From Escherichia coli (GTDB lineage: Bacteria > Pseudomonadota > Gammaproteobacteria > Enterobacterales > Enterobacteriaceae), in the NCBI RefSeq assembly GCF_011045215.1, contig NZ_CP049201.1: a stretch of DNA of 64,000 nucleotides; one strand, 5' to 3'. The notes under the pieces are model-generated. The model ran no database searches. It worked only from the letters and a program-made list of their open reading frames with translations, and had not been told where the DNA came from. Shown here one piece after another: positions 41,207-56,537 of the stretch. Position 1 is the stretch's first letter; each line of letters opens with the position of its first letter. The translations under genes were made by a program, and so were the position numbers.

Positions 41207-41537
41207 TTCTGATTTCCTCCAGACGAATTGTTTCCTGTGTTTCGTTATTCACGCCCAAAAGCGTCAACATGACATTTCCCTCACCGCCGAAGCTCACCTC
41301 CACACGGCGGATCGTCAGTCTCGGTTCCCAGCGTTCAAGAGCGGTAACCGTCTCACGGACAATCCTCACCCGTGTGAAATCATCCTGCGGGTTATCAAGC
41401 AGACTGAACAACCTGCTGCCGTATTCCCTGAGAAGTACCCGGCTGCCGACTGGTGTTGACAAAATATCGGTGACGGACTGACGCAGATGTTCGTTACCGT
41501 GCAGATATCTGCCGGTGGCGGAATCAATACCAATCAT
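41181..41537 (-). CDS. Baseplate protein W (P2 gpW / gp25-like)
   Basis: ORF track 41181..41627; start taken at MIGIDSATGRYL (ATG 41537); SVTDILSTPVGSRV resembles recalled P2 W. Confidence 0.75.
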   Translation of the reverse strand: MIGIDSATGRYLHGNEHLRQSVTDILSTPVGSRVLLREYGSRLFSLLDNPQDDFTRVRIVRETVTALERWEPRLTIRRVEVSFGGEGNVMLTLLGVNNETQETIRLEEIRIDNVSGHY

Positions 41538-41571
41538 GAAATTTTTCCGAAAAAAAACGCCGGTGCGGCGT

Positions 41572-42195
41572 TCACATTTCCTGGTTAGGTTTACGGGTGG
41601 TTCCCCCGCTGTCGCCAGGGTGATCATGAGTATTATAAATTTCGCGAATTTTACTCATGCTGCCGGTTTTATCGGTGATCTCCTGTGAGGCACCGATATT
41701 GCCCAGAACCTGCGTATCGGCATTAATCTTCGTTTCTCCCTGCACAGTCAGGGTATCCGTGATTTCCACCGGACCGTCCAGCGTTCCCCTGCCGGTGATT
41801 TTATAGCTGCCGCTTTCAGCCAGCGTGATGGACAGGGCATTGGCTTTACGGTCGTAACGGATTTCCGTTCCGGTATCAAACAAAATAACATGCTCGTGTT
41901 CACTGCCCGCCGGTACAGGAATGGCGTCAATATTCGCCCCCGGATACACACGACCGTTACGCAGATCGCCCGCCTCCGATATCACCGTGACCGCATCTCC
42001 TGGTGCCGGGTAATTACTGACCTGCATGTAACGCCCGGACTGCATCTGAATCCAGGGCAACGGCGGCGAAAGCACATCTCCGATATCCACCCGAACCATC
42101 ACCGGGTTACCCGGGATCACCTCTTCCACCACGCCGCGACGGATCATGTCCGCCACCCTGCGGCGTAACTCTGCCACTTCATCCGCCAGACTCAT
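41572..42195 (-). CDS. Baseplate spike protein V (P2 gpV-like)
   Basis: ORF track 41572..42354; start taken at MSLADEVAELRRRV (ATG 42195); C-terminus HDHPGDSGGTT as in P2 V. Confidence 0.8.
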   Translation of the reverse strand: MSLADEVAELRRRVADMIRRGVVEEVIPGNPVMVRVDIGDVLSPPLPWIQMQSGRYMQVSNYPAPGDAVTVISEAGDLRNGRVYPGANIDAIPVPAGSEHEHVILFDTGTEIRYDRKANALSITLAESGSYKITGRGTLDGPVEITDTLTVQGETKINADTQVLGNIGASQEITDKTGSMSKIREIYNTHDHPGDSGGTTRKPNQEM

Positions 42196-42339
42196 CGCCG
42201 GTGCCCTCCGCTTTCCAGATAAGACGATAATCCTGCACATGCTTTTTACCGGTTTCCGGTACTTTACCCAGCCAGACTTCCTGTAACGGCACACCTGCCG
42301 GAGCCGCAAACGGATCTTCGCCGACCGGAATGTCCTGTT
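42179..42339 (-). pseudogene. 3' fragment of a tail-completion gene (P2 gpS-like position), separated from its 5' part by the inserted element
   Basis: Open frame ...FSFEQDIPVGEDPFAAPAGVPLQEVWLGKVPETGKKHVQDYRLIWKAEGTGDESGG-stop with no upstream start (in-frame stop at 42398-42400); ATGA overlap with gene V. Confidence 0.55.
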
Positions 42340-42348
42340 CAAAAGAGA
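42340..42348. repeat. Left copy of 9-bp direct repeat CAAAAGAGA (putative att core)
   Basis: Identical 9-mer at 53493-53501; both copies sit in the same reading frame of the split gene. Confidence 0.5.
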
Positions 42349-42760
42349 AAGCAAACAAACAAGATAATAAGTTGAATTTAAAGGAATAAAAAAGGCATCA
42401 TTTTTGCTTTTGGTACAAATTCTAGTCCGTATAAACGCGGAAAAATCCGCTAAATTAAGATAAAAAAGATGCTTAGATAGTTACTATGTTTAGCTTCATG
42501 GCTACGGGGAGTAAGTTTGCTCTTTGCTTAATCTCGGTTATGGAAATCCCCATATCGGCATCATGCCCACCAGCGTGACGCATTTTTTTTAATTTCGCGG
42601 GTATAAAAATTTGACGAGGCGGGCGGTCCCATAAGCAATGGGGTGTAGGGATTCCGATCCCCCTGGGGGGGGTATTAAACACCCACCCTATTTAAATACC
42701 GTCTTTTTTGTCACTGTGTGTCACTGGTTGTCACTCTCCGTCACGGTATGCCACCATAAG

Positions 42761-43075
42761 TTAACGTCGTAACCGCTCCGGCTTCTTCCAGTGGTAAGTA
42801 ATTTTTTCTTTCTCCTGGTACATCTGCACGCGGCGACGGTATGACAACATCTCCAGAACTCTGGTGCGTATATTGCGCATATCCACGCCGTTAAGCTCAA
42901 TACCGTCACGGCGCATCACCTCAGCCACCACACGCGCGTAATTTTCGGCTATCACGCTGTCCGGCTGCGTGGCCTCCTGTTTGCCTGCTGGTGGTCTGAT
43001 TCCGGCAGCACGGCGAATCATTTTGAGCATTTCGGCTTCGGTCATTGTCATGGCCTCCGTGGTGATGGAAAACAA
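42761..43075 (-). CDS. Hypothetical protein downstream of element terS
   Basis: 104-aa ORF, no recognised motif; start uncertain (Met at 43075, 43051 or 43045). Confidence 0.4.
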   Translation of the reverse strand: MFSITTEAMTMTEAEMLKMIRRAAGIRPPAGKQEATQPDSVIAENYARVVAEVMRRDGIELNGVDMRNIRTRVLEMLSYRRRVQMYQEKEKITYHWKKPERLRR

Positions 43076-43310
43076 TGCCGTAATTGTGGCGGGTCCTTCC
43101 TGGAAAATGAAACACCGGGGGTGGCCATACGCGCAATTCTTAACTGTTTATGAAAATTTTTCGGGAAAAGTCAGATCCGTTCTTCTTCTCTGTAACTCAT
43201 TGTTTAATGGTAAAATCATCAAAAAAAGAAAGGATCTGGCAGTGGTCATTCTGGGCCCAAAATGACGTTATCAGATCCTTTCTCAGTTTTGTTCAATAAT
43301 TGCGCGGTTG

Positions 43311-43895
43311 TCACTCAGCTCTCTGTTGCCGTAACTTCTCCGGCACGTTTCCGGTTGTTTCCATCAGATAATCTTCCAGAATGCGGGGCAGGTTATCGGC
43401 AGTTTTAGCGCACGCATTACAGGCGCGTGCTGTTTCCCTCCTCAGGCCATCGATCATTGCCGGAGTCATCGCGGGAAACTGCCTTTGCATCGTAAGGGGC
43501 AAGCTATTCATGATGGTTGAAATCTGTTGCGCCAGTTTAGACAGTGCATACATACAAAAGCCGGTATCTATAACCTCTCCTGTCTCCCTGGCGTTCTTCA
43601 GTTCCTGCCCGTCAGCCTGTGCTTTAGTGAGACGGTATCGTTCGTACTCTGTTGTGCCTGGCTGTAAATCTGATTCACCAACGGCACGTAAATCATCAAG
43701 CTCACTGCGGAGTTTTTCTTTTTCGATCTCCTTCTCCCTCTGTACATACCATTCGATCACCTGTGAAGAGTCGAAAGTCACCTCCATACCTTTTCCGCCA
43801 CCAGATACATGGGGGAGCCCTTGCATCTGCCAACGTTCAATTGTGCGCGGATCAACACCGAAAATCTCTGCCAGTCTCTTTTTGTTAACATTCAT
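43311..43895 (-). CDS. Terminase small subunit, lambda Nu1-like (element copy)
   Basis: N-terminus MNVNKKRLAEIFGVDPRTIERWQMQGLPHVSGGGKGMEV resembles recalled lambda Nu1 winged HTH; C-terminal half similar to the prophage TerS at 62051..62560. Confidence 0.8.
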   Translation of the reverse strand: MNVNKKRLAEIFGVDPRTIERWQMQGLPHVSGGGKGMEVTFDSSQVIEWYVQREKEIEKEKLRSELDDLRAVGESDLQPGTTEYERYRLTKAQADGQELKNARETGEVIDTGFCMYALSKLAQQISTIMNSLPLTMQRQFPAMTPAMIDGLRRETARACNACAKTADNLPRILEDYLMETTGNVPEKLRQQRAE

Positions 43896-44039
43896 TTATC
43901 AAATCCTCATCAAAAACCACCTCCGACATGAAACGCCTGAAAAACGGGATTTTCCGGCGTTATGGTGTCGTATGTTTATTATAGTTAATTTAAATAAAAA
44001 CATAATGTTACATGCAAGAAGTACCGACATGCTTTTTCC

Positions 44040-44115
44040 CTGAAAAATTTTCATAAATAGTGAAAATCTGCGCGTCTGCCGCCCCGCGGTGTTTCTGATT
44101 CTGGAAAGGACCCGT
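44040..44115. other. Lambda-like cos site of the element
   Basis: GAAAAATTTTCATAAATAG ... GCGCGTCTGCCGCCCCGCGG ... GGAAAGGACCCG; reverse complement resembles the lambda cos junction (CGCTATTTATGAAAATTTTCC, GGGCGGCGACCT, GGGTCCTTTCC); about 185 bp upstream of terS. Confidence 0.6.
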
Positions 44116-44194
44116 GAAAATTGGGGCGATCACCACCGTTCCGGATACAAAAAAAATCGCGAGACCTTGCCAGCCTCGCGAACGTTCATTTCAG

Positions 44195-44620
44195 TTACTT
44201 AACAGACAGCAACAGCTTTTCATCTTCGGTCAGTCCGGCGTTGCCATCACCGGCTGCTGGCCCAACACATTTCGGGCTGTGCTTTTCCATGTACGCTTCA
44301 AACAGAAAAGCCGTTTTCTTTTCCTGCATCATTGCCTGGGCATCCACGGCAGCCAGTAACGTTTGTGCATAGGTTACTGTCATTACTTCAGAACCACACT
44401 CAATCAGCTTACTGGTGAACTCAGGGTATTTTGATGCCAGCGGTAACGCCTTGATACCCTCTATGCGCTGTTTATCACTCTCAGCCTTTGCAGTAAGCAC
44501 CGTTCGGGCTTCTGTCAGTGATGCGCCATTATTTGCGAGATTTTCCGCAAGCGTCGGGTATTTCTGCGCCTCAGGCAGTGCCATGATCAATGCTCTGGTT
44601 GAATTTGCTTTCTCAGTCAT
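44195..44620 (-). CDS. Hypothetical head-module protein (possible scaffold)
   Basis: 141-aa ORF between decoration-like gene and cos; no recognised motif. Confidence 0.45.
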   Translation of the reverse strand: MTEKANSTRALIMALPEAQKYPTLAENLANNGASLTEARTVLTAKAESDKQRIEGIKALPLASKYPEFTSKLIECGSEVMTVTYAQTLLAAVDAQAMMQEKKTAFLFEAYMEKHSPKCVGPAAGDGNAGLTEDEKLLLSVK

Positions 44621-44634
44621 AAATCACCACAAAA

Positions 44635-44964
44635 TTATTGCCCTAAAGGCTGCACGGAAATACCGGAACCAACAAAAGACGACACTTTTTTCTCGAACGT
44701 GTCCGCTGTATCAGGCCAGTTAATTTCATCGATATTAAAAACCCCGCACTTATAAACCTGTGCGCGGTTTTTTGTGGCCGTGTTAATGTCCGATATGGTC
44801 AGATACACCGCCTTACCGGGTGTACCGTCCCACTCAACCATCAGGCCCGCGCCGTTCTGCATCAGCGGAGTTCTCGCTTTAATTTCTCCGGCACTGGCAA
44901 AACAGGCCAGCGTGCTGACCAGTTCCTGCGTGCCGGAAAGGAATTGCGTGTAAGGTGTTGGCAT
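44635..44964 (-). CDS. Head decoration protein homologue (lambda gpD-like, element copy)
   Basis: RTPLM..VEWDGTPGKAV...YKCGVF..INWPD...FVGSGISV parallels the gpD pattern TPLM..VAWDG...YKSGTF...WP..AF.GTAIS. Confidence 0.65.
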   Translation of the reverse strand: MPTPYTQFLSGTQELVSTLACFASAGEIKARTPLMQNGAGLMVEWDGTPGKAVYLTISDINTATKNRAQVYKCGVFNIDEINWPDTADTFEKKVSSFVGSGISVQPLGQ

Positions 44965-44974
44965 ACGATCCCCT

Positions 44975-46030
44975 TTATTTCACTTCGACGGTAACAAAGC
45001 GACCAATATCCACGGGTACTGGCTGCGGGGCGCTGTGCGTCTGCACGTATTCAATCGCCGGATCGCCCGGTACGATATAATTTTTCGGGTAGTACATCCC
45101 CTCAGAAAATCCCTCGCGTGCCGCGTCCTGATCCATGATGGCACCATAAGCAACAAGGCCTTTATTTTCGGTATTGCCGAAAACCATCATGTTTTGTTTC
45201 AGGAAATATTGCTGCTGCCCGTTTTCGTCGTCATAACGACCGGAATAAACCACGATCGCCACATCACCGAGATACCCCTTGAAGCTGACAACGCCGCCCA
45301 AATCTTTTAGCGCAAGTTCAAGTGACGAGTTTGAACCGCGACGCGTGTCCATTAGTTCGCGGAATCGACGGAACGAGCGCAAAATACGCCAGGCTTCGCC
45401 ACCCATGACGATAATATTTACCGTACCTTCGGAAAAATCAGCGTAAGCCTCAATGTCGCTTATCGGATCAAACGTTTCGGCATCCTGTTTTGACCATTCT
45501 TTCCCGCCAGCCTGCGTAATATGATTGGTTTCGGGTAATCCCCAGTCAATTTCATAACGCTCAATGCCTTCGCCCTCAATAACGTTACGGCCTGTTGTGA
45601 TGGCATTGACCGCCAGCCATTCAACACGCGCTTTGATGGCAGCAAGCTGTTTTTTCTGGCTGTCGTGAACCATTTTTACGCGGCGTAGTGCCGGGGAAGA
45701 CTGACCATTGCCGATCTGTTCTCCAGGCATGCGCATGATTGTTTTGGTGGGATCAATAACGTGTTTGGGCTTCATATAACCCGGCGTGAACGTGTTCGTT
45801 GTGAAACCTTTGTCACGCATAACCTGGCTGCCTGACATTGGAGAACAAAACGGACTCATGACCACGTTTTCAATATCCAGCGTATCAAGTGCAATATCTC
45901 TGGTGCTGAAAGTAGCGACGTTCGGAAAGAACAACGTAGTAAAGAGTGGATTAAATTTAAATTCCGGCACATCTTCGCGCCCGATATTTTTCAGTAGCGT
46001 TGGTGTGCTTACCAGTTGCGGCGCTGTCAT
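44975..46030 (-). CDS. Major capsid protein homologue (lambda gpE-like, element copy)
   Basis: 351-aa ORF; TPGYMKPKH, NHITQAGGKEWSKQDAETFDP, KELMDTRRGSNSSLELALKDLGGVVSFKGY align with the prophage gpE at 55439..56467. Confidence 0.8.
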   Translation of the reverse strand: MTAPQLVSTPTLLKNIGREDVPEFKFNPLFTTLFFPNVATFSTRDIALDTLDIENVVMSPFCSPMSGSQVMRDKGFTTNTFTPGYMKPKHVIDPTKTIMRMPGEQIGNGQSSPALRRVKMVHDSQKKQLAAIKARVEWLAVNAITTGRNVIEGEGIERYEIDWGLPETNHITQAGGKEWSKQDAETFDPISDIEAYADFSEGTVNIIVMGGEAWRILRSFRRFRELMDTRRGSNSSLELALKDLGGVVSFKGYLGDVAIVVYSGRYDDENGQQQYFLKQNMMVFGNTENKGLVAYGAIMDQDAAREGFSEGMYYPKNYIVPGDPAIEYVQTHSAPQPVPVDIGRFVTVEVK

Positions 46031-46266
46031 TACTCACCCCCATGAGGCTGATTCATACCAAGCGCAGCGCGTAAATGGCTGCGTACCATCCAGCCGACTG
46101 ACGGCTTCACCAGGCACAACGGATCAAGGCCGATTTTTTTTCCTGCCTCTGCGTTCTCCTCAAAGCGCGCATTAAGTGCGGCGATAATATCGGGGCTGAT
46201 GTACACGGATACACCGCCCGGCTTCTGTGTTCCCATAAATGAGATTCCTCTTTGACTAAAAAACAA
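46030..46266 (-). CDS. Hypothetical protein upstream of capsid homologue
   Basis: 78-aa ORF, start uncertain; no recognised motif. Confidence 0.35.
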   Translation of the reverse strand: MFFSQRGISFMGTQKPGGVSVYISPDIIAALNARFEENAEAGKKIGLDPLCLVKPSVGWMVRSHLRAALGMNQPHGGE

Positions 46267-46457
46267 ACATAACGAAAAGTCATGTCATGATTTTAATTAT
46301 CGTTGCACTTTTTGCAATATAATTGACTATTGTTGCGAATAATGAAATCATTATGTCGTGGTTTTAATCCTTGTACCACAGAGTTGTTTAGCATTAATCA
46401 CGTTAGCGGCGTGAAATCCCCCGGAACCTCATCCCGGGGGATTTTTTTGCGCACAAA

Positions 46458-46482
46458 AAAGCCGGGAAAAATCCCGGCTTCT
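46458..46482 (-). terminator. Terminator after element ssb
   Basis: AGCCGGGA..TCCCGGCT hairpin followed by TTTTTTGTG on the minus strand, just after ssb stop. Confidence 0.5.
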
Positions 46483-46494
46483 GTCACTCGTTGC

Positions 46495-46917
46495 TTAAAA
46501 CGGTATTTCATCCCCGTACGGATCATCATTTCCCGCCTGTTGTTTTGCTCTGCTCAGTGCATCAGTAGCCTGCCCCTGTTGGCCTTTTTTGCCGCCCGGT
46601 CGCGCCGTTCTGGCACTGATTACACTGTCTGCGATAACCTGCCAGCTCTGCCGCGTTTCGCCGTTCTGGCCTGTCCACTGGCTTACCTGCATGTTACCCG
46701 CCACGCTCACCAGTTCGCCTTTGCGGTGTTTTGCCAGTGCGTCGGCCTGTCTGCCAAACGCCAGGACGGATAACCACATCGTCGCCGTTCCGTCATCTGC
46801 CTGGCTGCACGGCAGGGGAACCGCCATACTCGCCATCGCCATTTGTGTTCCCTTGCTGGTGGTCTTTAACTGCGGGTCAGCCACCAGCCGCCCGTAAGCT
46901 GCTATCTGTGCTGTCAT
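46495..46917 (-). CDS. Single-stranded DNA-binding protein (SSB-like) with acidic C-terminal tip
   Basis: 140-aa ORF; C-terminus ...NDDPYGDEIPF resembles the SSB tail ...DFDDDIPF. Confidence 0.7.
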   Translation of the reverse strand: MTAQIAAYGRLVADPQLKTTSKGTQMAMASMAVPLPCSQADDGTATMWLSVLAFGRQADALAKHRKGELVSVAGNMQVSQWTGQNGETRQSWQVIADSVISARTARPGGKKGQQGQATDALSRAKQQAGNDDPYGDEIPF

Positions 46918-47165
46918 GCTGTCTGCTCTCCGGTTTTAACGTTGATGGTTGTCACCTGTTCCGCTTCGGCAATCTCCCGCTCTGTCAGCGTGGCAAAGTT
47001 TGCCGCCGCTGTGGTCATGAATGCGCTTATCAGTTCGGGATGTGCTTTTGCGTATCCTTCTCCGGCATGGCGGTCTATTGTTCTGATTGCCACCTTTAAG
47101 GCGTGCTCTGTCATGTCTAACGCTTTATATTTTGGCGCTGTCTTATCTCTGGTTTTTTTGGTCAT
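46914..47165 (-). CDS. Hypothetical protein
   Basis: 83-aa ORF, ATGA overlap with ssb start. Confidence 0.45.
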   Translation of the reverse strand: MTKKTRDKTAPKYKALDMTEHALKVAIRTIDRHAGEGYAKAHPELISAFMTTAAANFATLTEREIAEAEQVTTINVKTGEQTA

Positions 47166-47370
47166 TTCTCACTATTCCCCACTTTTTCGCCTCACTTTTT
47201 AAGCTCCCAACATGATTTCCAACCTTGTTTTTTTGTGATTCTAATATGTTGTTTTTCAATGTGTTTTTTATTCCTCACTTTTGAGCCTATATACAGGTTG
47301 AAAAGTGAGGGGCGCGGTTGCTTTTTGTTCAGTTTCTGCTATCCCCTCACTTTTGTGCCTCACTTTTTAC
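47165..47370. repeat. Iteron array with AT-rich core (candidate replication origin of the element)
   Basis: CTCACTTTT at 47191, 47274, 47346, 47361 and inverted AAAAGTGAGG at 47301, flanking an AT-rich stretch (47225-47275), directly downstream of the helicase gene. Confidence 0.55.
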
Positions 47371-48782
47371 AGTGGGCGCACATCATCACCGTCAATAGTG
47401 ATAACGCCGTCTCTTTCCAGCTTGTACAGCCAGCGCCGAAAGTTTTTCATCTCATACCCCAGCTTTTTCATATCATCACGCAATAACGGGATAGTGCATT
47501 TATCGCCGCGCTGTGTGCGTGAACGGATACAGCCCCATAGCGCGGCGTGATTCTCCGTCTTGTTTCCGGCCTCCTCAATGCGCTCCAGTTCAACAGGTGG
47601 GCGCGGCTTATCCACTACCACCAGCGACGTGATTAACTCCTTGTCAGCGTCGATAAAAAGCTCCACCACGCGTAAATCGTATGCGGCCTCTTTCAGTTCC
47701 TCTGCGTCCTTCATTTTGGTGCAGGAGATAACCAGGGCTTCACTGTCTGCACCTTCCCGGCGAATACGGTATTCAGCGTCCAGAGATGCACGAAATGCAC
47801 TGGAACCACGCGCCCCCTTTGTTTCATCCTTGCCGGAATGGTGAACCACCAGTACCGTGGCCCCTGTGCGTCGTTTCAGTTCGTCACATCCACGGATAAA
47901 CGCCCCCATATCCCGCGCGTCATTTTCATCATTACCGCCAAAACACCGCGCCAGCGTATCCAGAATAATCATGCGTACCGGTTTACCCGTTTCCCTTTCA
48001 ACCTGGCGGGAAGCGATGACCATTTCATCAATATCAAACTGTGCTGCCGGAAAAATCGGGCGGTTTACCAGGTACAGATTTTTCACCCGTTCATCATTAA
48101 CGATTTCCCATGCTTTGATACGACGAGGGACACCAATGCCACCTTCACCGACGACATACATCACCGAACCATGCGCCACCCTGCGGCCTCCCCAGTGGCG
48201 ACCCGTGGCAACATGACACGCCCAGGAACACGCGAGGAATGATTTATAGGAACCGCTCGCGCCGTATGTGCTGCACAACGAATTAGCCGGAATCACGCCC
48301 TTAACGACATAATCAAGCTGTGTGTCGTACCCTGCAGATCCAATACTCATTGGTAGCGTGGTTTTTCGCTGGTCGTTTTTTTCTTCCTCCGGTATCTCTC
48401 CGGACCGTCTTTTCTGGCGCTCTCGTTCCAGATATTCGCGCCACCCCTCCCGCTTCTGGCTGTGCATTCCCTCAGGGTAATAATTCGCATCCCGTACACC
48501 TGCCGCTGCCAGCTTTTGCCCGATGGCATTAATATTTGACGGCTTGATGTGGCCTGCCTTGTACAGCCGGACACAATAGCGACCATCGTCGATAATTTTC
48601 AGGTCAGCCAGTTCGTCAAGATGGCTGTCTCCAAGCCATACAGGCGGAACATTGTCGCCAGCAAGTCGCCCGTCCTGCTCCTGCCATTGTTTCGCGTGCG
48701 CCCAGGCATCACTACCCGCAAAAATAATGACTTCGGTCATTTTGTCGTGCGGCTGTTTTTTTAAGTTCGGTGCCAGTTTCAT
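47367..48782 (-). CDS. Replication protein, RepA/DnaB-like P-loop helicase
   Basis: 471-aa ORF with Walker A GASGSYKS and RecA-like core; C-terminal winged-helix-like region. Confidence 0.7.
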   Translation of the reverse strand: MKLAPNLKKQPHDKMTEVIIFAGSDAWAHAKQWQEQDGRLAGDNVPPVWLGDSHLDELADLKIIDDGRYCVRLYKAGHIKPSNINAIGQKLAAAGVRDANYYPEGMHSQKREGWREYLERERQKRRSGEIPEEEKNDQRKTTLPMSIGSAGYDTQLDYVVKGVIPANSLCSTYGASGSYKSFLACSWACHVATGRHWGGRRVAHGSVMYVVGEGGIGVPRRIKAWEIVNDERVKNLYLVNRPIFPAAQFDIDEMVIASRQVERETGKPVRMIILDTLARCFGGNDENDARDMGAFIRGCDELKRRTGATVLVVHHSGKDETKGARGSSAFRASLDAEYRIRREGADSEALVISCTKMKDAEELKEAAYDLRVVELFIDADKELITSLVVVDKPRPPVELERIEEAGNKTENHAALWGCIRSRTQRGDKCTIPLLRDDMKKLGYEMKNFRRWLYKLERDGVITIDGDDVRPL

Positions 48783-49078
48783 TTTTTACCCCTGAATGCG
48801 TTAATCATGTTTTTCATTTTCTGAATGTTCGCCCGTGCCTTTGCGTTGCTGGTGGGCTGTTTGCATGGCGTGGCCTGTATCAGTGAAAAATCACGCCGGA
48901 ACTGATAAACAGGCATCACGCAGTCATAGCCGTACCCATCACGGCGGTAAGTAACGCACCGTCCCGCCACGCTTTTAATCGTTACCGTGCCGCCGTAGTT
49001 ATCCCGGAAAATATCGCCGGGGCGGATTTCAGGCCGAGCGGGGCCGCTGGCAGTAAAGCCAGAAATTTTCTGTTTCAT
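48779..49078 (-). CDS. Hypothetical protein
   Basis: 99-aa ORF, ATGA overlap with helicase start. Confidence 0.4.
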   Translation of the reverse strand: MKQKISGFTASGPARPEIRPGDIFRDNYGGTVTIKSVAGRCVTYRRDGYGYDCVMPVYQFRRDFSLIQATPCKQPTSNAKARANIQKMKNMINAFRGKK

Positions 49079-49286
49079 GGTTTTTATTCCTCTGCGCGGG
49101 TCTTGTTGTGTATTTCCATAACCGCGTTTAATTCATCAATAACCGGGGTTAACAGAGTGCTGAAAGCAGAAAATAAATCCCCCCCCCTGTTCGGCATGAA
49201 CTTCGGTTAATTTAATTAATACCGCTTTCATTTCCAGTGCCCGGTTTAATGCATTCTCAGAATGAATAAGAACATCGAAAGGGATT

Positions 49287-49520
49287 TTATCCATGGCTTA
49301 CATCCTCCGGGAATTTTCTTCTGTAACGCGCCTCTGCAACATATTCCGCATAGTCCGACGCAATATTGAGAATCTCCACACCCTCTGACCTGTAGCCACT
49401 GGTACTGATAAGAAAAAATGCGGCTTTCATCATGTCGGCAACGCATAACAACGCATCGCCTGTATGTTCCGGTGCGCCATCAAATTCCTGTTTCAGGGCA
49501 TTAAAACGATCATCACGCAT
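49287..49520 (-). CDS. Hypothetical protein (may be the 3' part of one gene frameshifted at a C9 tract)
   Basis: 77-aa ORF; begins inside poly-C/G tract 49523-49531. Confidence 0.3.
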   Translation of the reverse strand: MRDDRFNALKQEFDGAPEHTGDALLCVADMMKAAFFLISTSGYRSEGVEILNIASDYAEYVAEARYRRKFPEDVSHG

Positions 49521-49753
49521 AACCCCCCCCCATTTTCACAATCAGTAATCAGGATGGCTTTAGCCTCATTCAGTGCCATATCAGCACTAAATTGCATAAC
49601 AGCCAGTGAGTGAGGAACGAAATCCCCGGCATATTCTGTTTCGCTGGTGGCGTGCTTATGTGCCCTGTCCGCGATAACAGAAATATCAATCAGCGCGTGC
49701 ATCAGCGTTTTGATGGCTTCGGCGGCTGCGTCCTGACGGGTGTTATTGCACAT
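49493..49753 (-). CDS. Hypothetical protein (may be the 5' part of one gene frameshifted at a C9 tract)
   Basis: 86-aa ORF ending just after poly-C/G tract. Confidence 0.3.
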   Translation of the reverse strand: MCNNTRQDAAAEAIKTLMHALIDISVIADRAHKHATSETEYAGDFVPHSLAVMQFSADMALNEAKAILITDCENGGGLCVMIVLMP

Positions 49754-49949
49754 GGCGCACCTCCTGACGAATACGGGCGGCGAATACCATCACGCAGCCA
49801 TCAGGAGATTGCTGACGCGCTTCCTGTTCGTTGGTGGCCTCAATGGTAATCACGCGCGGTTGTGCCGTGCTCAGGGCGATAAAACGCCAGATGTATTTAT
49901 TCAGGTTGTGCGAGTCCCGCCCTTGCGGGTGTGTGGTATGATTTAACAT
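49743..49949 (-). CDS. Hypothetical small protein, divergent from the RHH gene
   Basis: Start taken at MLNHTTHPQ (ATG 49949, RBS GAGGTA); long upstream extension in ORF track rejected. Confidence 0.4.
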   Translation of the reverse strand: MLNHTTHPQGRDSHNLNKYIWRFIALSTAQPRVITIEATNEQEARQQSPDGCVMVFAARIRQEVRHVQ

Positions 49950-50043
49950 AGCTACCTCGATAATCTTGCTATCGTTGGTGGTTAGACGCCCTGCATGTGT
50001 ACCACCACTGCGGGGCGTTGCGTTTTTTGATGTGCACGTGTTA

Positions 50044-50088
50044 AGGTGTACACCTAACGAACCAAAACATAACGCCATAGGTGTACAC
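50044..50088. promoter_or_regulatory. Two palindromic operator-like sites GTGTACAC in a divergent promoter region
   Basis: AGGTGTACAC at 50044-50053 and 50079-50088, second abutting the RHH start codon. Confidence 0.5.
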
Positions 50089-50283
50089 ATGTCAACAGTT
50101 ATTAAGCGCGATAAAAAACAAAAAGGCACAGGAAAGGCCCCACCATTCCATATGCGTATAGTCCCTGAATTGAAGGAGCAGTTTGATAACGAAGCCAGTA
50201 ACGATGGAGTAAGTCTTGCCAACTGGCTTAAAGAGTTAGGGCGCAAAGAACTGCTACGGCGCGGAATTGAACCAAAGGGATAA
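50089..50283 (+). CDS. Ribbon-helix-helix (Arc/CopG-like) DNA-binding protein
   Basis: ORF track 49966..50283; start taken at MSTVIKRDKKQKG (ATG 50089); APPFHMRIVPELKEQFDNEASNDGVSLANWLKELGRK fits the Arc-type RHH pattern. Confidence 0.6.
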   Translation: MSTVIKRDKKQKGTGKAPPFHMRIVPELKEQFDNEASNDGVSLANWLKELGRKELLRRGIEPKG

Positions 50284-50340
50284 CTATCACTAATGTCGCA
50301 ACCAGAGGAGTTGCGACTCCGAAGATTACATAGGAAATTA

Positions 50341-50823
50341 ATGATTATGGGATTCGTCATTTTCATTGCGATCGTAATTTTATCCATTTACGTTCTTACC
50401 AAATTATTTATTTCAGAAAATTCACACGACAAAATTAGAGCCGAGGCATCCAGAAGAATTGCACAAGAAGAGGCCGAACGGGCTAAGTTGTATGAAGAGA
50501 GAAAGGAATCATCTGATAATCCTGTTAATAAACAAAAACGAATAACAACACACGAAGATCATTTTTATATGGATATTCATGGTGGTCACAAATATATATG
50601 TGTTGATGCTAAGTTAGTTTTTGAATATGCAAATTTAAAACACAACTATTTTCTTCACGCCTCTCACTATTTCCCTGAGTTAGAGTATGTTTATGGAAAA
50701 AACGAACATGGGAAAATAGTTAGAGTAGATTTGTACGATAAAAAAATTCAAGCTATTAACCCCGATACTGGCGAAAAAATACCTGGTGTGAGACGTTATC
50801 TACGACAGCACAAGATAAAATAG
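50341..50823 (+). CDS. AT-rich membrane-anchored protein of unknown function
   Basis: ORF track 50293..50823; start taken at MIMGFVIFIAIVILSIYVL (ATG 50341, RBS AGGAAA); single N-terminal TM helix; markedly lower GC than neighbours. Confidence 0.5.
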   Translation: MIMGFVIFIAIVILSIYVLTKLFISENSHDKIRAEASRRIAQEEAERAKLYEERKESSDNPVNKQKRITTHEDHFYMDIHGGHKYICVDAKLVFEYANLKHNYFLHASHYFPELEYVYGKNEHGKIVRVDLYDKKIQAINPDTGEKIPGVRRYLRQHKIK

Positions 50824-51238
50824 CCCACCGGAATTTTTTTCCGGTTACGCTTTGCCCACCAGCCGCAAATGTGGCATTGTTGGCTATGCTCATGCGTTGG
50901 GGATAACGCGCAATTAGTGTTGAAGGGCCACCGTAGCGGGTGGCCTTTGTTTTGCCTGTTATCCGGCAATTGTGGCGCTTCGCCACACGGTTGATATAAT
51001 CCTCCTGCACAGATTCATTTTTTGCGCAGCAGGTTAATTGTTCGCAAGGGCGCTCCGGCAACTGGGCGCTTTTTGTTTTTACCCACCAGCACAATAAAAA
51101 TCTTCATTTTCCATTTTTGCAAAATTTCATGCTTTCCGGACGACTGGCCATATGTCATTTTTTAGCAGAAGATTTTGCCTTGCTGGTGGGTAGCTTCCCG
51201 GTTAACACGATGTACCGTATAATCAGCACCGCACGCGG

Positions 51239-51820
51239 TTACTGAATACGCTCACCAAAGTAAAACTCAGGCTGATATTCACGTATCAGCCTTTTTTCTT
51301 CTTCCTCCAGCTCACGCTTTTTGCGCTTACATGCCTGTAGTTCCCTCCCCTTCTCGCTGGCACTTATCTGGTATTGCTCTTTGCGACGGGAAAAATCCTG
51401 TAATGCGCCCCACGGGATACCATAAGCCCCCGTTTTTCTGATACCCGGTATCACATTTCTGAATACCCAGTTACTGAAACGATGGGCGAACGTGCCAGGA
51501 GTAGCAGCTTTTCGACTTCTGGCAATCAGCTTGTAAAAACCAGATTCAGAAACGACGCTATGATTTGGATTTCCGCGAATACCGTAAGTTAAAGTTACGG
51601 TATTACTTTCATCATCATCCAGAGCTTGCAACGCCATGCGTGAATTAGTCAGTTCCAGCGCAGCGCAGACATCCTTTGCAACAAACCACGGATCGCCGTT
51701 CAGATACACCACGCGAACGTTCACACTATCAAAGCGCAGAACGACCAGATCACGAATATCACAGAATTTTTTCACTGGACGTGCGTCACCCTTGCCAGTC
51801 ACGGCAATATTTTTATTCAT
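51239..51820 (-). CDS. Bro-N domain protein (antirepressor-like)
   Basis: DIRDLVVLRFDSVNVRVVYLNGDPWFVAKDVCAALEL...GFYKLI..S....A..F..WV fits Bro-N. Confidence 0.7.
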   Translation of the reverse strand: MNKNIAVTGKGDARPVKKFCDIRDLVVLRFDSVNVRVVYLNGDPWFVAKDVCAALELTNSRMALQALDDDESNTVTLTYGIRGNPNHSVVSESGFYKLIARSRKAATPGTFAHRFSNWVFRNVIPGIRKTGAYGIPWGALQDFSRRKEQYQISASEKGRELQACKRKKRELEEEEKRLIREYQPEFYFGERIQ

Positions 51821-51870
51821 CGCTTTTTACCTCACATACAAAAAACCCCGCATTGCGCGGGGTATATCAA

Positions 51871-52080
51871 TCATTGACGATATTCATTAGCTTGTTTTCG
51901 TTGTCTTTCCAGCCACGATGCAACATCATCACGATGCCATGCGTTGCGTCGCCCAATCTTAAAGGGGCGTGGAAATTTATTTTTTTCATCATTCATGAAA
52001 GCGTAAAATGCACTCATTGCACCGTAGCGAAGCTCTGCCATCACGTCTTTGGTAAATAGAATATTGCCGTTAGTGCTCAT
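51871..52080 (-). CDS. AlpA-family regulator / excisionase-like protein
   Basis: 69-aa ORF immediately downstream of integrase, HTH-like core. Confidence 0.65.
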   Translation of the reverse strand: MSTNGNILFTKDVMAELRYGAMSAFYAFMNDEKNKFPRPFKIGRRNAWHRDDVASWLERQRKQANEYRQ

Positions 52081-52086
52081 ATTGCC

Positions 52087-53319
52087 TCACATATTCACTA
52101 CTTTTAGCCCCTGATGACCACCAGAACGACGGATAATTCCCTTTCTGGCATCATCAACAAAATCACCAATCCATTGCATCATGATCTTACGTTGCTCAAA
52201 ATATTTTGAGCGATTATAAATATCACGAATAGCATCGCCGCTTTTATGGGCTAATGCTGCCTCAATAACATCTGGGTTAAACCCTTCTTCGTTGAGTAAC
52301 GTACTCCACATAGCCCGGAATCCGTGGGCAGTTGCAATACCATAAAATTGTCCATCTTTGAAACACTTATGACGCAACACGCTTGATATAGCTTTCCCCG
52401 GATTCTTTGGAGAAAAAAATATATAGCTACCACATTTTATTTTATTCATTTCATTTAAAATATCCACGGCTTGCCGTGAAAGCGGAACTACGTGTTCACG
52501 TCCACACTTCATTCTTTCAGGGGGAATTGTCCAGATACAATTTTCTAAATCAATTTCCTCCCATTTTGCCTCCCTTGCTTCACATGGTCGTACCATAGTG
52601 AAAATCTGGAACAAAAGAGAGCATCTTATAGAGATATTACTTGTAGTATCCCACCAGTTCAAAAATTCTGATAACAGTTCAACTGGTAATGCCTTTAATG
52701 GGGTATGTTTTTTTGTTGCAAATGCATTTCTTATTGTTGATAGCGGGTTATTTTTAATTACTCCAGAGTTAACACAGTAATTCATTATTTCATTAATTTT
52801 TGAAATAATTTTATCCAATACAGAATTACGATCAGAAAATTGATTAAGCAATGGTATGACCACAGGCGCGGTCATATCATGTATGTACACATTTCCAAAT
52901 ACAGGGATTATATGTCTGTTCAATAACTCTTCTATTGTCTGTAAAGTCGACAGTCGCAAATCACCTTTTTTCTTAAAATTAAACCATTCAATTGCAATAG
53001 CACCAAACGTCTGTAAGTGCTTTCTTTTAGCCTCGAGTCGTTTTTCTGCCCGGTATGATAACGGATCTATATCCCGTGCCAACAATCTGCGCAGATTATC
53101 GCGTTCTTCTCTGGCTTCAACCAGCGTGAAATCGGGGTATCGCCCTATAGTGTATGTTTGCCGCTTCTTCGTAAAAGGTTGTACATAACGAAAACGCCAC
53201 GATTTACTACCGGCTTTTGACACATAAAGCAAAAGCCCAAACCCATCATATAGAGCGTAATCTTTCTCTCGTGGCCTGGCGCTTTTTACCTCTGATGCAG
53301 TAAGAGGCTTCACCGACAT
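52087..53319 (-). CDS. Tyrosine recombinase, P4-type integrase
   Basis: ORF track 52087..53418; start taken at MSVKPLTASEVKSARPREKDYALYDGFGLLLYVSKAGSKSWRFRY (ATG 53319); C-terminal catalytic region with HGFR and Y. Confidence 0.85.
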   Translation of the reverse strand: MSVKPLTASEVKSARPREKDYALYDGFGLLLYVSKAGSKSWRFRYVQPFTKKRQTYTIGRYPDFTLVEAREERDNLRRLLARDIDPLSYRAEKRLEAKRKHLQTFGAIAIEWFNFKKKGDLRLSTLQTIEELLNRHIIPVFGNVYIHDMTAPVVIPLLNQFSDRNSVLDKIISKINEIMNYCVNSGVIKNNPLSTIRNAFATKKHTPLKALPVELLSEFLNWWDTTSNISIRCSLLFQIFTMVRPCEAREAKWEEIDLENCIWTIPPERMKCGREHVVPLSRQAVDILNEMNKIKCGSYIFFSPKNPGKAISSVLRHKCFKDGQFYGIATAHGFRAMWSTLLNEEGFNPDVIEAALAHKSGDAIRDIYNRSKYFEQRKIMMQWIGDFVDDARKGIIRRSGGHQGLKVVNM

Positions 53320-53492
53320 ACAAGCACTCCAATACAAATTTTTTCTAGTCCATGCGCTGGTTCCTTTTGCCAGAATACTGGCGATAAAAAAGCGAAAAAC
53401 AAGGAACAATGCACACAATGAAAAAACCGCAACTTATTGAATAAGAAGAAAAACAAAAAGAAACGGTAACGAAAGATAATGATTGCATAGTC

Positions 53493-53501
53493 CAAAAGAG
53501 A
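53493..53501. repeat. Right copy of 9-bp direct repeat CAAAAGAGA (putative att core)
   Basis: Identical to 42340-42348; about 170 bp from the integrase start. Confidence 0.5.
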
Positions 53502-53898
53502 CACGGAAAACGATGTAGTCGTCCAGCAGTCGGTCGAAGGTATCCACCTCAGCATCAATAAAAACCGCCGGATCAACGTTATCCAGCCCGAACGTGGCTC
53601 CATCAATCCAGTCAGATAAATCCATTGCCAGACAGCGGGCAAATATCTGCGGTTTTGGCACGTTTTCCGTCTTTCCGGCCCGATCAGTCACCACAAACAG
53701 ATCGCATTTCAGCGTGACCCGTGTCTGCCCGTCGGCAAACTGAGCCTTGTCCCAGCCGGGTACATCCACAAACACGGCAGGCGTCACCAGTTGCGTCACT
53801 TTTTCCGGGTACTCATCGGCATCTTCCACCCAGGGAATTTGTTTCAGACTGTCAATCACTGCCTGATGCCAGGTTCCCATCATCAATGGTTCCATCAT
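53501..53898 (-). pseudogene. 5' fragment of the split tail-completion gene
   Basis: ORF 53434..53898 reads a coherent protein to ...DDYIVFRVSF then a hydrophobic nonsense tail (GLCNHYLSLPFLFVFLLIQ) encoded by element sequence; frame at the junction matches the fragment at 42179..42339. Confidence 0.55.
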
Positions 53899-54617
53899 TC
53901 CATCCCCTTAAATACCCGGAATTTCAGTTCATGCTCAAAATTTTTCAGGATCAGTGCTTCCGCATCAGGGAAAACAAAATCCTCTATACGGTTCAGCATG
54001 GCTTCATAAATATCAATTTCCGCTTCGCGCACCCTTCGTCGTCCGGATGCCTGCCGGACCAGTACCGTCTTACGTCGTGAAATGCGTCCGCGCCGGTTTT
54101 CAGACTCAAACTCATTAACAAAAGCCTCGTCACCTGACCAGGTGGTGACCGGTATTGCCTCCCCGGCGGGCTTAAAACGTATCTCCGGCGCTTTCCTGCG
54201 ACGGGAAGCCGGTGCAAAACGCCCCCGTTCATCACGCAGCTGATGGCGTTCACCGCGTCGCCCCCCACTGATGCGTCCGCGCAGATCACGCACTTTGATG
54301 GCGTTCAGGCCGAACCACACCTTTACCTCATCAAACTCATCGCCATTTCGACGAATGATAAAAGCATTCAGGACACGTTTTTTGATCATTTTCTGGCTGC
54401 GTGGCGCAACCTGTTTTTTAAACTCTGCCATGGCCTTCATCCGCAGTGCGGACGCGGCTCTTTTCAGCGCCACGCCCCAGGCTTTACGGATCTGGCTTTT
54501 TGAACCACCCAGTTTAGCGATAATTTTCAGCACATCATCCTCGTCAATATCGACGACGAGGTTTCGTGCCAGCCGTCGCTGCCGGACAGTGCTTCGTTCA
54601 TGCTCTCTGACTGTCAT
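53895..54617 (-). CDS. Putative head-tail joining / virion morphogenesis protein
   Basis: ORF track 53895..54677; start taken at MTVREHERSTVRQ (ATG 54617); between FII-like and tail-completion genes; family not recognised. Confidence 0.45.
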   Translation of the reverse strand: MTVREHERSTVRQRRLARNLVVDIDEDDVLKIIAKLGGSKSQIRKAWGVALKRAASALRMKAMAEFKKQVAPRSQKMIKKRVLNAFIIRRNGDEFDEVKVWFGLNAIKVRDLRGRISGGRRGERHQLRDERGRFAPASRRRKAPEIRFKPAGEAIPVTTWSGDEAFVNEFESENRRGRISRRKTVLVRQASGRRRVREAEIDIYEAMLNRIEDFVFPDAEALILKNFEHELKFRVFKGME

Positions 54618-55005
54618 AACGTTTACTCGGTCGGACAGGGGCGGCGGGTGTACTTCTTCCGGGTTCTCCCCGCGCAAGAGTAATGGTAATCACACCATGA
54701 CCCGCAGTGCCTGACTCATCCCAGCCAGGATCGACCACCTGGTAGGGTTCGCCGTGGATCATGACCCTGTCATATTTTTTCAGTCCGGCAACCCATGCGC
54801 TCCGGGTAAATAACACCGGTGCAGTATCACGAATTTCGCCGCTGCCAGTGTTCATCCCGGTGTTATCTGCCGGGGCATCAAAAACAGCACGGATTTTTCT
54901 TTCCGTGCCGCCCGGATATATGCTGATTTCCGTCCCCATCGTATCCAGGATGATGTCATCCGCATCACTCATGGCCTGATCGAACAGATTATCGGACATC
55001 ATCAC
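54598..55005 (-). CDS. Head-tail joining protein (lambda FII-like)
   Basis: 135-aa ORF; NLFDQAMSDADDIILDTMG resembles recalled lambda FII N-terminus; ATGA overlap with FI. Confidence 0.65.
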   Translation of the reverse strand: MMMSDNLFDQAMSDADDIILDTMGTEISIYPGGTERKIRAVFDAPADNTGMNTGSGEIRDTAPVLFTRSAWVAGLKKYDRVMIHGEPYQVVDPGWDESGTAGHGVITITLARGEPGRSTPAAPVRPSKRYDSQRA

Positions 55006-55438: not shown

Positions 55439-56467
55439 TTATTTCACCTGAACCACCACAAACGCGTCCGGATCCGGCAACACCATCAACGGCGCAGACT
55501 GCGTCATGGTATATTCGCACCCCGGGTCCCCCACCTCTAACCAGTGTTTCGGATAACGAATTGCAGAGGTGATCCCTTCACTCAGCGCCTGGTTATCCTG
55601 GATTGCGCCATAACAACGGACACCCTCCACCTGAGTGTTTCCAAGAATCAGTGTGCCTTCCGGCAGATAACGCTGCTCATCCCCGTTTTCATCAACATAC
55701 GTTGTTTTCGCCACCATGATGGCCAGATCACCGTAATAACCTTTAAAAGAAACCACGGAACCCAGATCTTTCAGCGCGGTTTCCAGTTCAGATTTTGAGC
55801 CACGGCGGGTATCCAGTTTTTCACGAAACAGCTTAAAACCGTTCAGCATACGCCAGACAGTACCGTCCATAATCGCAATATTGATGGTACCGGAAGCAAA
55901 ATCGCAGTACGCATCCAGATCATGCGTCGGATCAAAGGTGTCAGCATTCTGTTTTGACCATTCGCGTCCCCCTGCCTGCGTTATGTTATTGGCGGCAGAA
56001 CGTCCAAAATCCACTTCCACCGTCTCAAACTGTTCACCGCTCATGGTGTACTTACCCTGCAGAACAGCGCTGACCGCCTGCATTTCTTCCACCTGCACAA
56101 TCGCCTGCTCTTCCTGTTTCAGGTTATCAGTCAGAATACGCAGGCGACGGTAGGCCGGGTCATTAAGACGGGCCGGATCTTCCCCCGGAAGACGCTCCAC
56201 CGCCTGCTGATAATCCAGCCGGTGTTTTGGTTTAACATAGCCGGGGCGTAACACGCGGGTTTCACCACCACGACTGCGCAGTACCTTACCTGACACAACC
56301 GGAGACACATATGCCGCAACCGGTGTTTTTCCGGTGATTTTATCCAGCATCACTTCCTGAGTATGGAAAGTGACCGTACGACGAAAAAACAGCTCCAGAA
56401 ACAGCGCACGGAATTTCACTTTCTGCTCGGTGTAGCCGAGCAACTGACGCGTGGTAAATAACCCCAT
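55439..56467 (-). CDS. Major capsid protein (lambda gpE-like)
   Basis: ORF track 55439..56506; start taken at MGLFTTRQLLG (ATG 56467, RBS GGAAAG); long stretches match recalled lambda E (PIVSG.V.RSRGG, PGYVKPKH, VEEMQAVSAVL.GKYTM.GE.F, KLDTRRGS.SELETA.KDLG). Confidence 0.9.
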   Translation of the reverse strand: MGLFTTRQLLGYTEQKVKFRALFLELFFRRTVTFHTQEVMLDKITGKTPVAAYVSPVVSGKVLRSRGGETRVLRPGYVKPKHRLDYQQAVERLPGEDPARLNDPAYRRLRILTDNLKQEEQAIVQVEEMQAVSAVLQGKYTMSGEQFETVEVDFGRSAANNITQAGGREWSKQNADTFDPTHDLDAYCDFASGTINIAIMDGTVWRMLNGFKLFREKLDTRRGSKSELETALKDLGSVVSFKGYYGDLAIMVAKTTYVDENGDEQRYLPEGTLILGNTQVEGVRCYGAIQDNQALSEGITSAIRYPKHWLEVGDPGCEYTMTQSAPLMVLPDPDAFVVVQVK

Positions 56468-56537
56468 AATTGACTTTCCTTTAAAAACACAAACGAACCG
56501 CATCACGACCCGTTTTTTTCAGTTAATCACTTCACCA

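Follow-up and report, generated by a model that had tools for sequence, protein, structure and literature searches.

A probable replication origin directly 3′ of a RepA-family helicase gene in a phage-inducible chromosomal island of Escherichia coli

In a 64-kb stretch of Escherichia coli DNA (the window, whose coordinates are used throughout), a gene for a RepA/DnaB-like helicase is followed by a short intergenic gap crowded with copies of a 10-bp repeat, which raises the question of what these repeats do. A preliminary description proposed that they form a satellite origin of the type found in phage-inducible chromosomal islands (PICIs), placed beside the gene for its initiator/helicase. Sequence comparisons and structural models point the same way, through synteny with the E. 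coli island EcCICFT073, a conserved architecture of the repeat block, a predicted winged helix in the helicase, and covariation of the repeats with helicase residue 447.

The island and its prophage host

The gap lies within a PICI-like island of ∼11.1 kb (42349..53489, minus strand), extending from an integrase gene (52087-53418) to a small terminase gene (43311-43895) and also coding for a DUF4222 protein, the helicase, a single-stranded DNA-binding protein (SSB), a lambda-E-like major capsid protein, and a head-decoration protein. A 69-aa open reading frame (ORF) has a weak match to Phage_AlpA (i-E = 6e-4). The structural genes are limited to capsid, decoration, and terS, and with its length of 11.1 kb, inside the ∼10 to 15 kb range of PICIs, an integrase, an AlpA-type ORF (by that weak match), genes that mostly run one way, and less than a full set of virion and lysis genes, the island has the features of a PICI. 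A 95%-identical island with the same gene order is located between abgR and smrA in E. coli KSC1031. The spacer gave no match in a blastn search of 50,697 phage records; this element is not a phage but an island.

The island itself sits inside a prophage. An uninterrupted prophage in E. coli C5 is 99.8-99.9% identical to 41499-42348 and 53490-54752, and these matches share 12 bp, GT[T/C]CAAAAGAGA, representing a duplicated att core at 42337-42348 and 53490-53501. A direct-repeat search found no att sites for the island, and its ends are defined by the comparison with the uninterrupted prophage. The insertion splits a 183-aa late gene situated between baseplate V and head-tail genes, and it matches the published "helper-embedded PICI" arrangement (PMC10111431).

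Two other features of this region are of note. The region contains a pair of lambda-E-like major capsid genes separated by 9 kb, with one in the island (44975-46030; 351 aa) and the other in the prophage (55439-56506; 355 aa), and each has head-decoration or packaging genes of its own after it. Two plus-strand genes (49966-50283 and 50293-50823) oppose the otherwise unidirectional island and code for a 105-aa Arc-like protein of the YlcI/YnfO type and a 176-aa protein whose N-terminal segment is hydrophobic and which matches no family, respectively; these may be accessory or defense cargo.

A repeat array fills the gap after the helicase gene

The preliminary description reported five copies of a 9-mer, one of them inverted, around a 50-bp AT-rich stretch in the intergenic region immediately after the helicase gene, and none outside the block. 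An exact search of the window bears this out. CTCACTTTT occurs five times, always inside 47191-47367, with starts at 47191, 47274, 47346, and 47359 on the plus strand and 47301 on the minus strand, although shuffled sequences give a chance expectation of 0.54 per window and 0/100 shuffles gave five copies. The actual repeat unit is the 10-mer CCTCACTTTT (at 47190, 47273, 47301 on the minus strand, 47345, and 47358), which reads AAAAGTGAGG on the helicase-sense strand. When one mismatch is tolerated, six of the eight matches across the window fall in 47177-47367, adding the variant CCCCACTTTT at 47177, and there is no second iteron cluster anywhere in the 64 kb at the same tolerance. Reading of the sequence revealed a further degenerate copy, TCTCACTATT, at 47167, for a total of ∼7 copies of AAAAGTGAGG directly 3′ of the helicase gene. 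These two degenerate left-hand copies escaped the earlier inspection, as did a 38-bp near-palindrome and an overlap with the helicase stop codon.

The block occupies the whole 201-bp gap (47166..47366, minus strand) that opens at the stop codon of the 471-aa helicase gene and closes where an 83-aa ORF (46914..47165, minus strand; phrog_1231) starts. This ORF is in turn followed by the SSB gene of the replication module (46495..46917, minus strand; phrog_44). In the helicase-sense direction it begins with iteron set I, two minus-strand copies 13 bp apart right after the stop (copy 1 at 47358..47367, in a position kept in relatives and sharing 1 nt with the stop codon, and copy 2 at 47345..47354), and a 30-bp spacer. 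Next come the sole oppositely oriented iteron (47301..47310, plus strand), a center reading CCTGTATATA on the helicase-sense strand (TATATACAGG on the other; 47288..47297), and a direct copy (47273..47282, minus strand) that adjoins a 50-bp AT-rich stretch (47224..47273), a candidate DNA-unwinding element. The array ends with iteron set II, three direct copies on the minus strand consisting of an exact match (47190..47199), the CCCCACTTTT variant (47177..47186), and degenerate TCTCACTATT (47167..47176), the last of which lies on the ribosome-binding region of the next gene.

The AT-rich stretch has a GC content of 22%, compared with 27% for the larger interval 47200-47272, 38% for the whole spacer, and 51-53% for the flanking genes. 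Its predicted duplex stability is 2.4 SD under the element mean, but of all 50-bp windows in the island it is only the ninth least stable, such that the melting argument is weak when taken alone. Scans for sigma-70 promoter and intrinsic terminator consensus sequences found none in 46800-47700, and an Rfam scan of the spacer at E ≤ 1 returned no family; on these grounds, the spacer is not read as a promoter, a terminator, or a known RNA. Inspection of 47166-47366 by eye gave no TTATCCACA-like 9-mer (DnaA box).

The inverted iteron pair and its center form the near-palindrome at 47273-47310, which can fold as a hairpin (47268-47315; −9.4 kcal/mol, z = −5.2), and the repeats could in principle be a structural hairpin, such as a transcript-end stem-loop, or neutral remnants, in either case with no protein partner. 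We find this scarcely credible, as the stem is not followed by a T-run and no terminator was called, direct copies that do not pair change in concert with the palindrome arms, the iteron cores are more conserved than the spacer around them, and the cluster is far above the chance level that the shuffles exclude.

The helicase gene and the genes downstream of it have no terminator between them, which puts the spacer within a transcription unit, and set II adjoins the start codon of the next gene, with its last copy on the ribosome-binding region. The repeats might accordingly serve mainly as an operator, with the helicase winged helix or another island protein controlling the downstream 83-aa, SSB, and capsid genes. 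This is unlikely, however, given that there is no sigma-70-like promoter nearby, and that the candidate hexamers within the AT-rich part are 8 to 10 bp apart, too close for a promoter. In addition, half of the sites directly follow the helicase stop, ∼150 to 200 bp short of the next start codon, an AT-rich center between two site sets is not something that an operator requires, and the syntenic spacer of EcCICFT073 is required in cis for plasmid replication. Origin function is thus the reading that we favor, and a secondary effect of the repeats on downstream expression is possible.

A RepA-family helicase with a predicted winged helix

The presumed initiator is the 471-aa helicase (47367..48782, minus strand), identified by its Pfam and PHROG matches and by the PGAP names of near-identical E. 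coli loci. Residues 153-320 match the RecA-like Pfam family AAA_25 (E = 1.4e-43), the PHROG matches are phrog_2850 and primase/helicase PHROGs, and near-identical E. coli proteins are named "helicase RepA family protein." The RSF1010 RepA structure (1g8y) is a weak match (E = 0.02, residues 154-325). AAA_25 is the only Pfam match, and there is no Rep-family match in either Pfam or NCBIfam.

At the C terminus, AlphaFold2 predicts a domain (aa 410-471; 47370..47555, minus strand) with three helices followed by a beta-hairpin, at pLDDT values of 83 to 94; the helicase core was modeled poorly at full length (mean pLDDT 59), and the C-terminal domain alone was therefore used. The best PDB matches in Foldseek are winged helices, including LexA (with DNA complexes among the matches), the IclR-type PcaR, Fur, DtxR, and DnaD-N, with probabilities of 0.9 to 0.99 but weak E-values (≥0.04). 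This result supports a winged-helix DNA-binding fold for the model, and only that, not a specific family; the domain is predicted to bind the iterons. Residue 447 is at the N-terminal end of helix 3 in the model, the putative recognition helix, and its codon in the window specifies Asn (47442..47444, minus strand), a candidate specificity residue.

The N-terminal part of the protein has a different relationship. Residues 1-123 (48412-48782) share ∼76% nucleotide identity with the N terminus of the EcCICFT073 P4-family primase (L169 3501-3880), and these first ∼123 codons have no Pfam match. This domain is an alpha/beta fold common to two otherwise different initiators, and the DUF4222 gene just upstream (48779..49078, minus strand), which overlaps the helicase start, is also common to them and is a conserved partner in both PICI replicon types.

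Conservation of the array in relatives

The close set of relatives includes the window, seven E. coli loci, and 79 usable IMG/VR loci, for a total of 87 loci with 61 distinct origin sequences. The iteron cores are at identical positions in all 87, with a mean column conservation of 0.92 for the iterons and 0.72 for the rest of the spacer. The columns of the palindrome center TATATACAGG are also conserved, mostly at ≥0.9 over 59 distinct origins, and the other genera examined have a related TGTATA/TATATA center.

A scan of species-representative genomes yielded 79 loci, 73 of them analyzable and from other Enterobacterales, most of which repeat the map seen in the window; the genera are Xenorhabdus, Photorhabdus, Kluyvera, Kosakonia, Serratia, Erwinia, Pectobacterium, Morganella, and other genera. 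The cross-genus examples examined in detail have the same map directly 3′ of a homologous helicase gene, with a direct set, an inverted pair around a TATATACAGG-type center, an AT-rich stretch, and a second direct set, and the iterons themselves are lineage specific (GTGAGGA, AAGTGGGGA, AAGTGGGGGA, and AAGTGCGGCA). Two loci with a His-type helicase, L144 (Klebsiella sp.) and L147 (Tatumella sp.), show no recognizable array of iterons within 280 nt past the gene, and their origins may be located elsewhere or lost. The replicon class is widespread. The spacer is present in 402 of 5,426 complete E. coli genomes, and most of the helicase-to-spacer stretch is in 583; carriers of the class include O157:H7, O145, and O111 strains, and it extends across the Enterobacterales.

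A separate motif, CATTACTGG, is found in the AT-rich part of origins from other genera (L106, L109, L118, and L124) and also in the origin of EcCICFT073 (L169, about 1925-1940), despite its different initiator; it is not in the origin of the window. It may be a host-factor or priming site.

Helicase residue 447 covaries with one iteron base

The iterons of the close set are of two flavors, AAAAGTGAGG and AAAAGTGGGG, and the copies within one origin are essentially all of the same flavor. The flavor corresponds without exception to the identity of helicase residue 447 (87/87 loci), with Asn447 accompanying A (AAAAGTGAGG) in 45/45 loci and His447 accompanying G (AAAAGTGGGG) in 42/42. Among the 471 columns of the helicase, only column 447 is fully informative on iteron type (0.999 bit), and the next column has 0.44 bit. 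Pairs of C-terminal domains only two to four residues apart carry opposite iteron types, and position 447 is the sole difference common to all of the pairs. As a linkage control, the best column of the 83-aa protein has 0.60 bit with iteron type and that of DUF4222 has 0.24 bit.

The pairing extends to other genera when the dominant core base of each locus is considered: Asn with A in 22/23 loci, His with G in 5/7, Lys with G in 35/38, and Ser with C in 5/5. In protein-DNA recognition generally, Asn prefers adenine, and His and Lys prefer guanine (e.g., Luscombe et al. 2001). The cross-genus pairings of residue 447 fit these Asn-adenine and His/Lys-guanine preferences. The residue-447 codon and the iterons are only 75 to 280 bp apart, however, so the association is partly one of linkage, and the two largely travel as one cassette. 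The number of iteron-type changes required varies with the tree used, with three on a tree of origin DNA (cores masked), seven on one of the C-terminal domain, and 16 on one of helicase residues 1-395.

There is, in our estimation, an even chance that origin specificity is set by one residue, the one that begins the recognition helix in this RecA-fold (RepA/DnaB-like) helicase, with Asn, His, Lys, and Ser at position 447 reading A, G, G, and C, respectively, at iteron position 8. If this is true, then all 6 to 10 iterons of an origin must switch along with residue 447, and the satellites of the Enterobacterales contain orthogonal initiator/origin pairs. A further implication would be that a helicase of the SF4 type came independently to load itself and bind an origin, a role for which the documented satellite initiators have so far been AAA+/SF3-type proteins (SaPI Rep and P4 alpha). 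An N447H substitution together with an A-to-G swap in the iterons should then re-target the initiator, offering a handle on satellite replication, island cross-talk, and orthogonal replicons.

The island has its own small terminase and integrase, and such proteins also read short repeated sites, which invites the alternative that one of them recognizes the block, as a pac/cos site for packaging or as a site of recombination. This is very unlikely, since terS lies 3.3 kb and int 4.7 kb away, the att core maps elsewhere (at the coordinates given above), the repeat sequence covaries with a helicase residue, and the array follows the helicase gene in relatives regardless of the other content of the island.

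Within the origin of the window, which is of the Asn/A type, the iteron at 47177-47186 (CCCCACTTTT) has the G-type base of the other flavor, and the same mixed copy is found in L011-L013. Such a copy could be a mismatch that the system tolerates, or it could be left over from an earlier switch or recombination event. We also considered the idea that co-resident islands avoid a common iteron type, and this is ruled out by one genome with three Asn-type elements (L030-L032, IMG/VR) and another with two His-type elements (L076 and L077). Elements with the same flavor and the same residue 447 thus reside together in one genome, and a common origin specificity is evidently tolerated.

A model for initiation of island replication

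Taken together, the comparative and structural support described above indicates that 47166-47366 is very probably the vegetative replication origin of this ∼11-kb PICI. Upon island induction, the RepA-family (RecA-fold, AAA_25) helicase would serve as its own initiator, docking its winged helices on the iterons, with residue 447 reading the eighth base pair (Asn with A:T and His with G:C). Protomers would oligomerize on the two flanking sets and the inverted pair, the adjacent TATATA center or AT-rich DNA would open, and the RecA-fold ring would self-load onto the single strands, after which the island SSB and the host primase and polymerase could take over. The scheme follows the one reported for SaPI Reps (PMC9371898) and for EcCICFT073 Pri-ori, with an AAA_25/RepA-like motor in place of their superfamily III/P4-type motors.

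This assignment would place the cis-acting origin for a class of PICI replicons found commonly in E. coli, and it leaves the current understanding of PICI replication unchanged. The layout, with iterons around an AT-rich center 3′ of rep, is already published for SaPIs and Gram-negative PICIs. The link between one residue and one base in specificity, and a RecA-fold helicase acting as a self-loading initiator, are possibly new; neither was found in the literature searched.

Comparison with known replicons

The closest counterpart is EcCICFT073, for which a plasmid with pri and the downstream spacer replicates, and deletion of either impairs replication (Fillol-Salom et al. 2018, PMC6092414). 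The backbones are homologous and organized in the same order (int, AlpA-like, DUF4222, rep, spacer, small ORF, SSB, and capsid), with an iteron-rich spacer at the same position in both. The initiators differ, that of EcCICFT073 being annotated as a P4-family primase (584 aa), in contrast to the AAA_25/RepA-family helicase with a different C terminus here, and as expected from this the iterons differ too, being of the TCTACC/GGTAGA type in EcCICFT073 and CCTCACTTTT in the window. Iteron sequences are absent from the text of that report (Fillol-Salom et al. 2018, PMC6092414), although its Fig. 2a may draw this iteron. Of the two, the EcCICFT073 origin is the one with an experimental test, and that of the window is a predicted counterpart.

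The SaPI Reps, which are related to AAA+ superfamily III/MCM-type helicases, are self-loading and bind, through a C-terminal winged helix, iterons that surround an AT-rich center immediately downstream of rep (PMC9371898). The E. coli island shares the principal features of such PICI origins: in the window and its relatives, the candidate origin is immediately 3′ of the rep gene; set I with the palindrome (47273-47367) and set II (47167-47199) flank an AT-rich interval (47200-47272), with some copies in opposite orientation, as in SaPIs; and the helicase has a C-terminal winged helix that is predicted in silico to recognize the iterons. However, the motor is a RecA-fold AAA_25 protein rather than a superfamily III/MCM-type helicase, and the iterons are ∼10 nt rather than 5 to 6 nt. 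The SaPI iteron sets are opposed, whereas here the outer sets are co-oriented and the inverted pair flanks a conserved TATATA center.

P4 is a satellite of enterobacterial phages. Its alpha protein joins a primase to an SF3 helicase and also binds the origin, all in one polypeptide, with a C-terminal winged helix that reads repeated octamers. The P4 ori is not known to lie directly 3′ of the alpha gene, and P4 requires a second cis site, crr, kilobases away. The island is likewise a satellite with helicase and predicted origin-binding functions in one polypeptide. It differs in that the window has no second cluster of the crr type, and in that Pfam identifies AAA_25 alone in the initiator, in place of a primase with an SF3 helicase.

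Among solved structures, RSF1010 RepA (1g8y) comes closest to the helicase core by sequence. RSF1010 RepA is not known to carry an origin-binding domain, and the oriV iterons are bound by another protein, RepC. Iteron plasmids of the pPS10, F, RK2, and R6K types resemble the island origin in having direct repeats, winged-helix readers, and an adjacent AT-rich unwinding element. Their initiators are dedicated non-helicase Rep proteins with tandem winged helices (Rep_3 or RepA-RepE-Pi), which rely on DnaA and DnaB/DnaC; the island protein, in contrast, has no plasmid Rep domain in Pfam, and its predicted winged helix is fused to the helicase.
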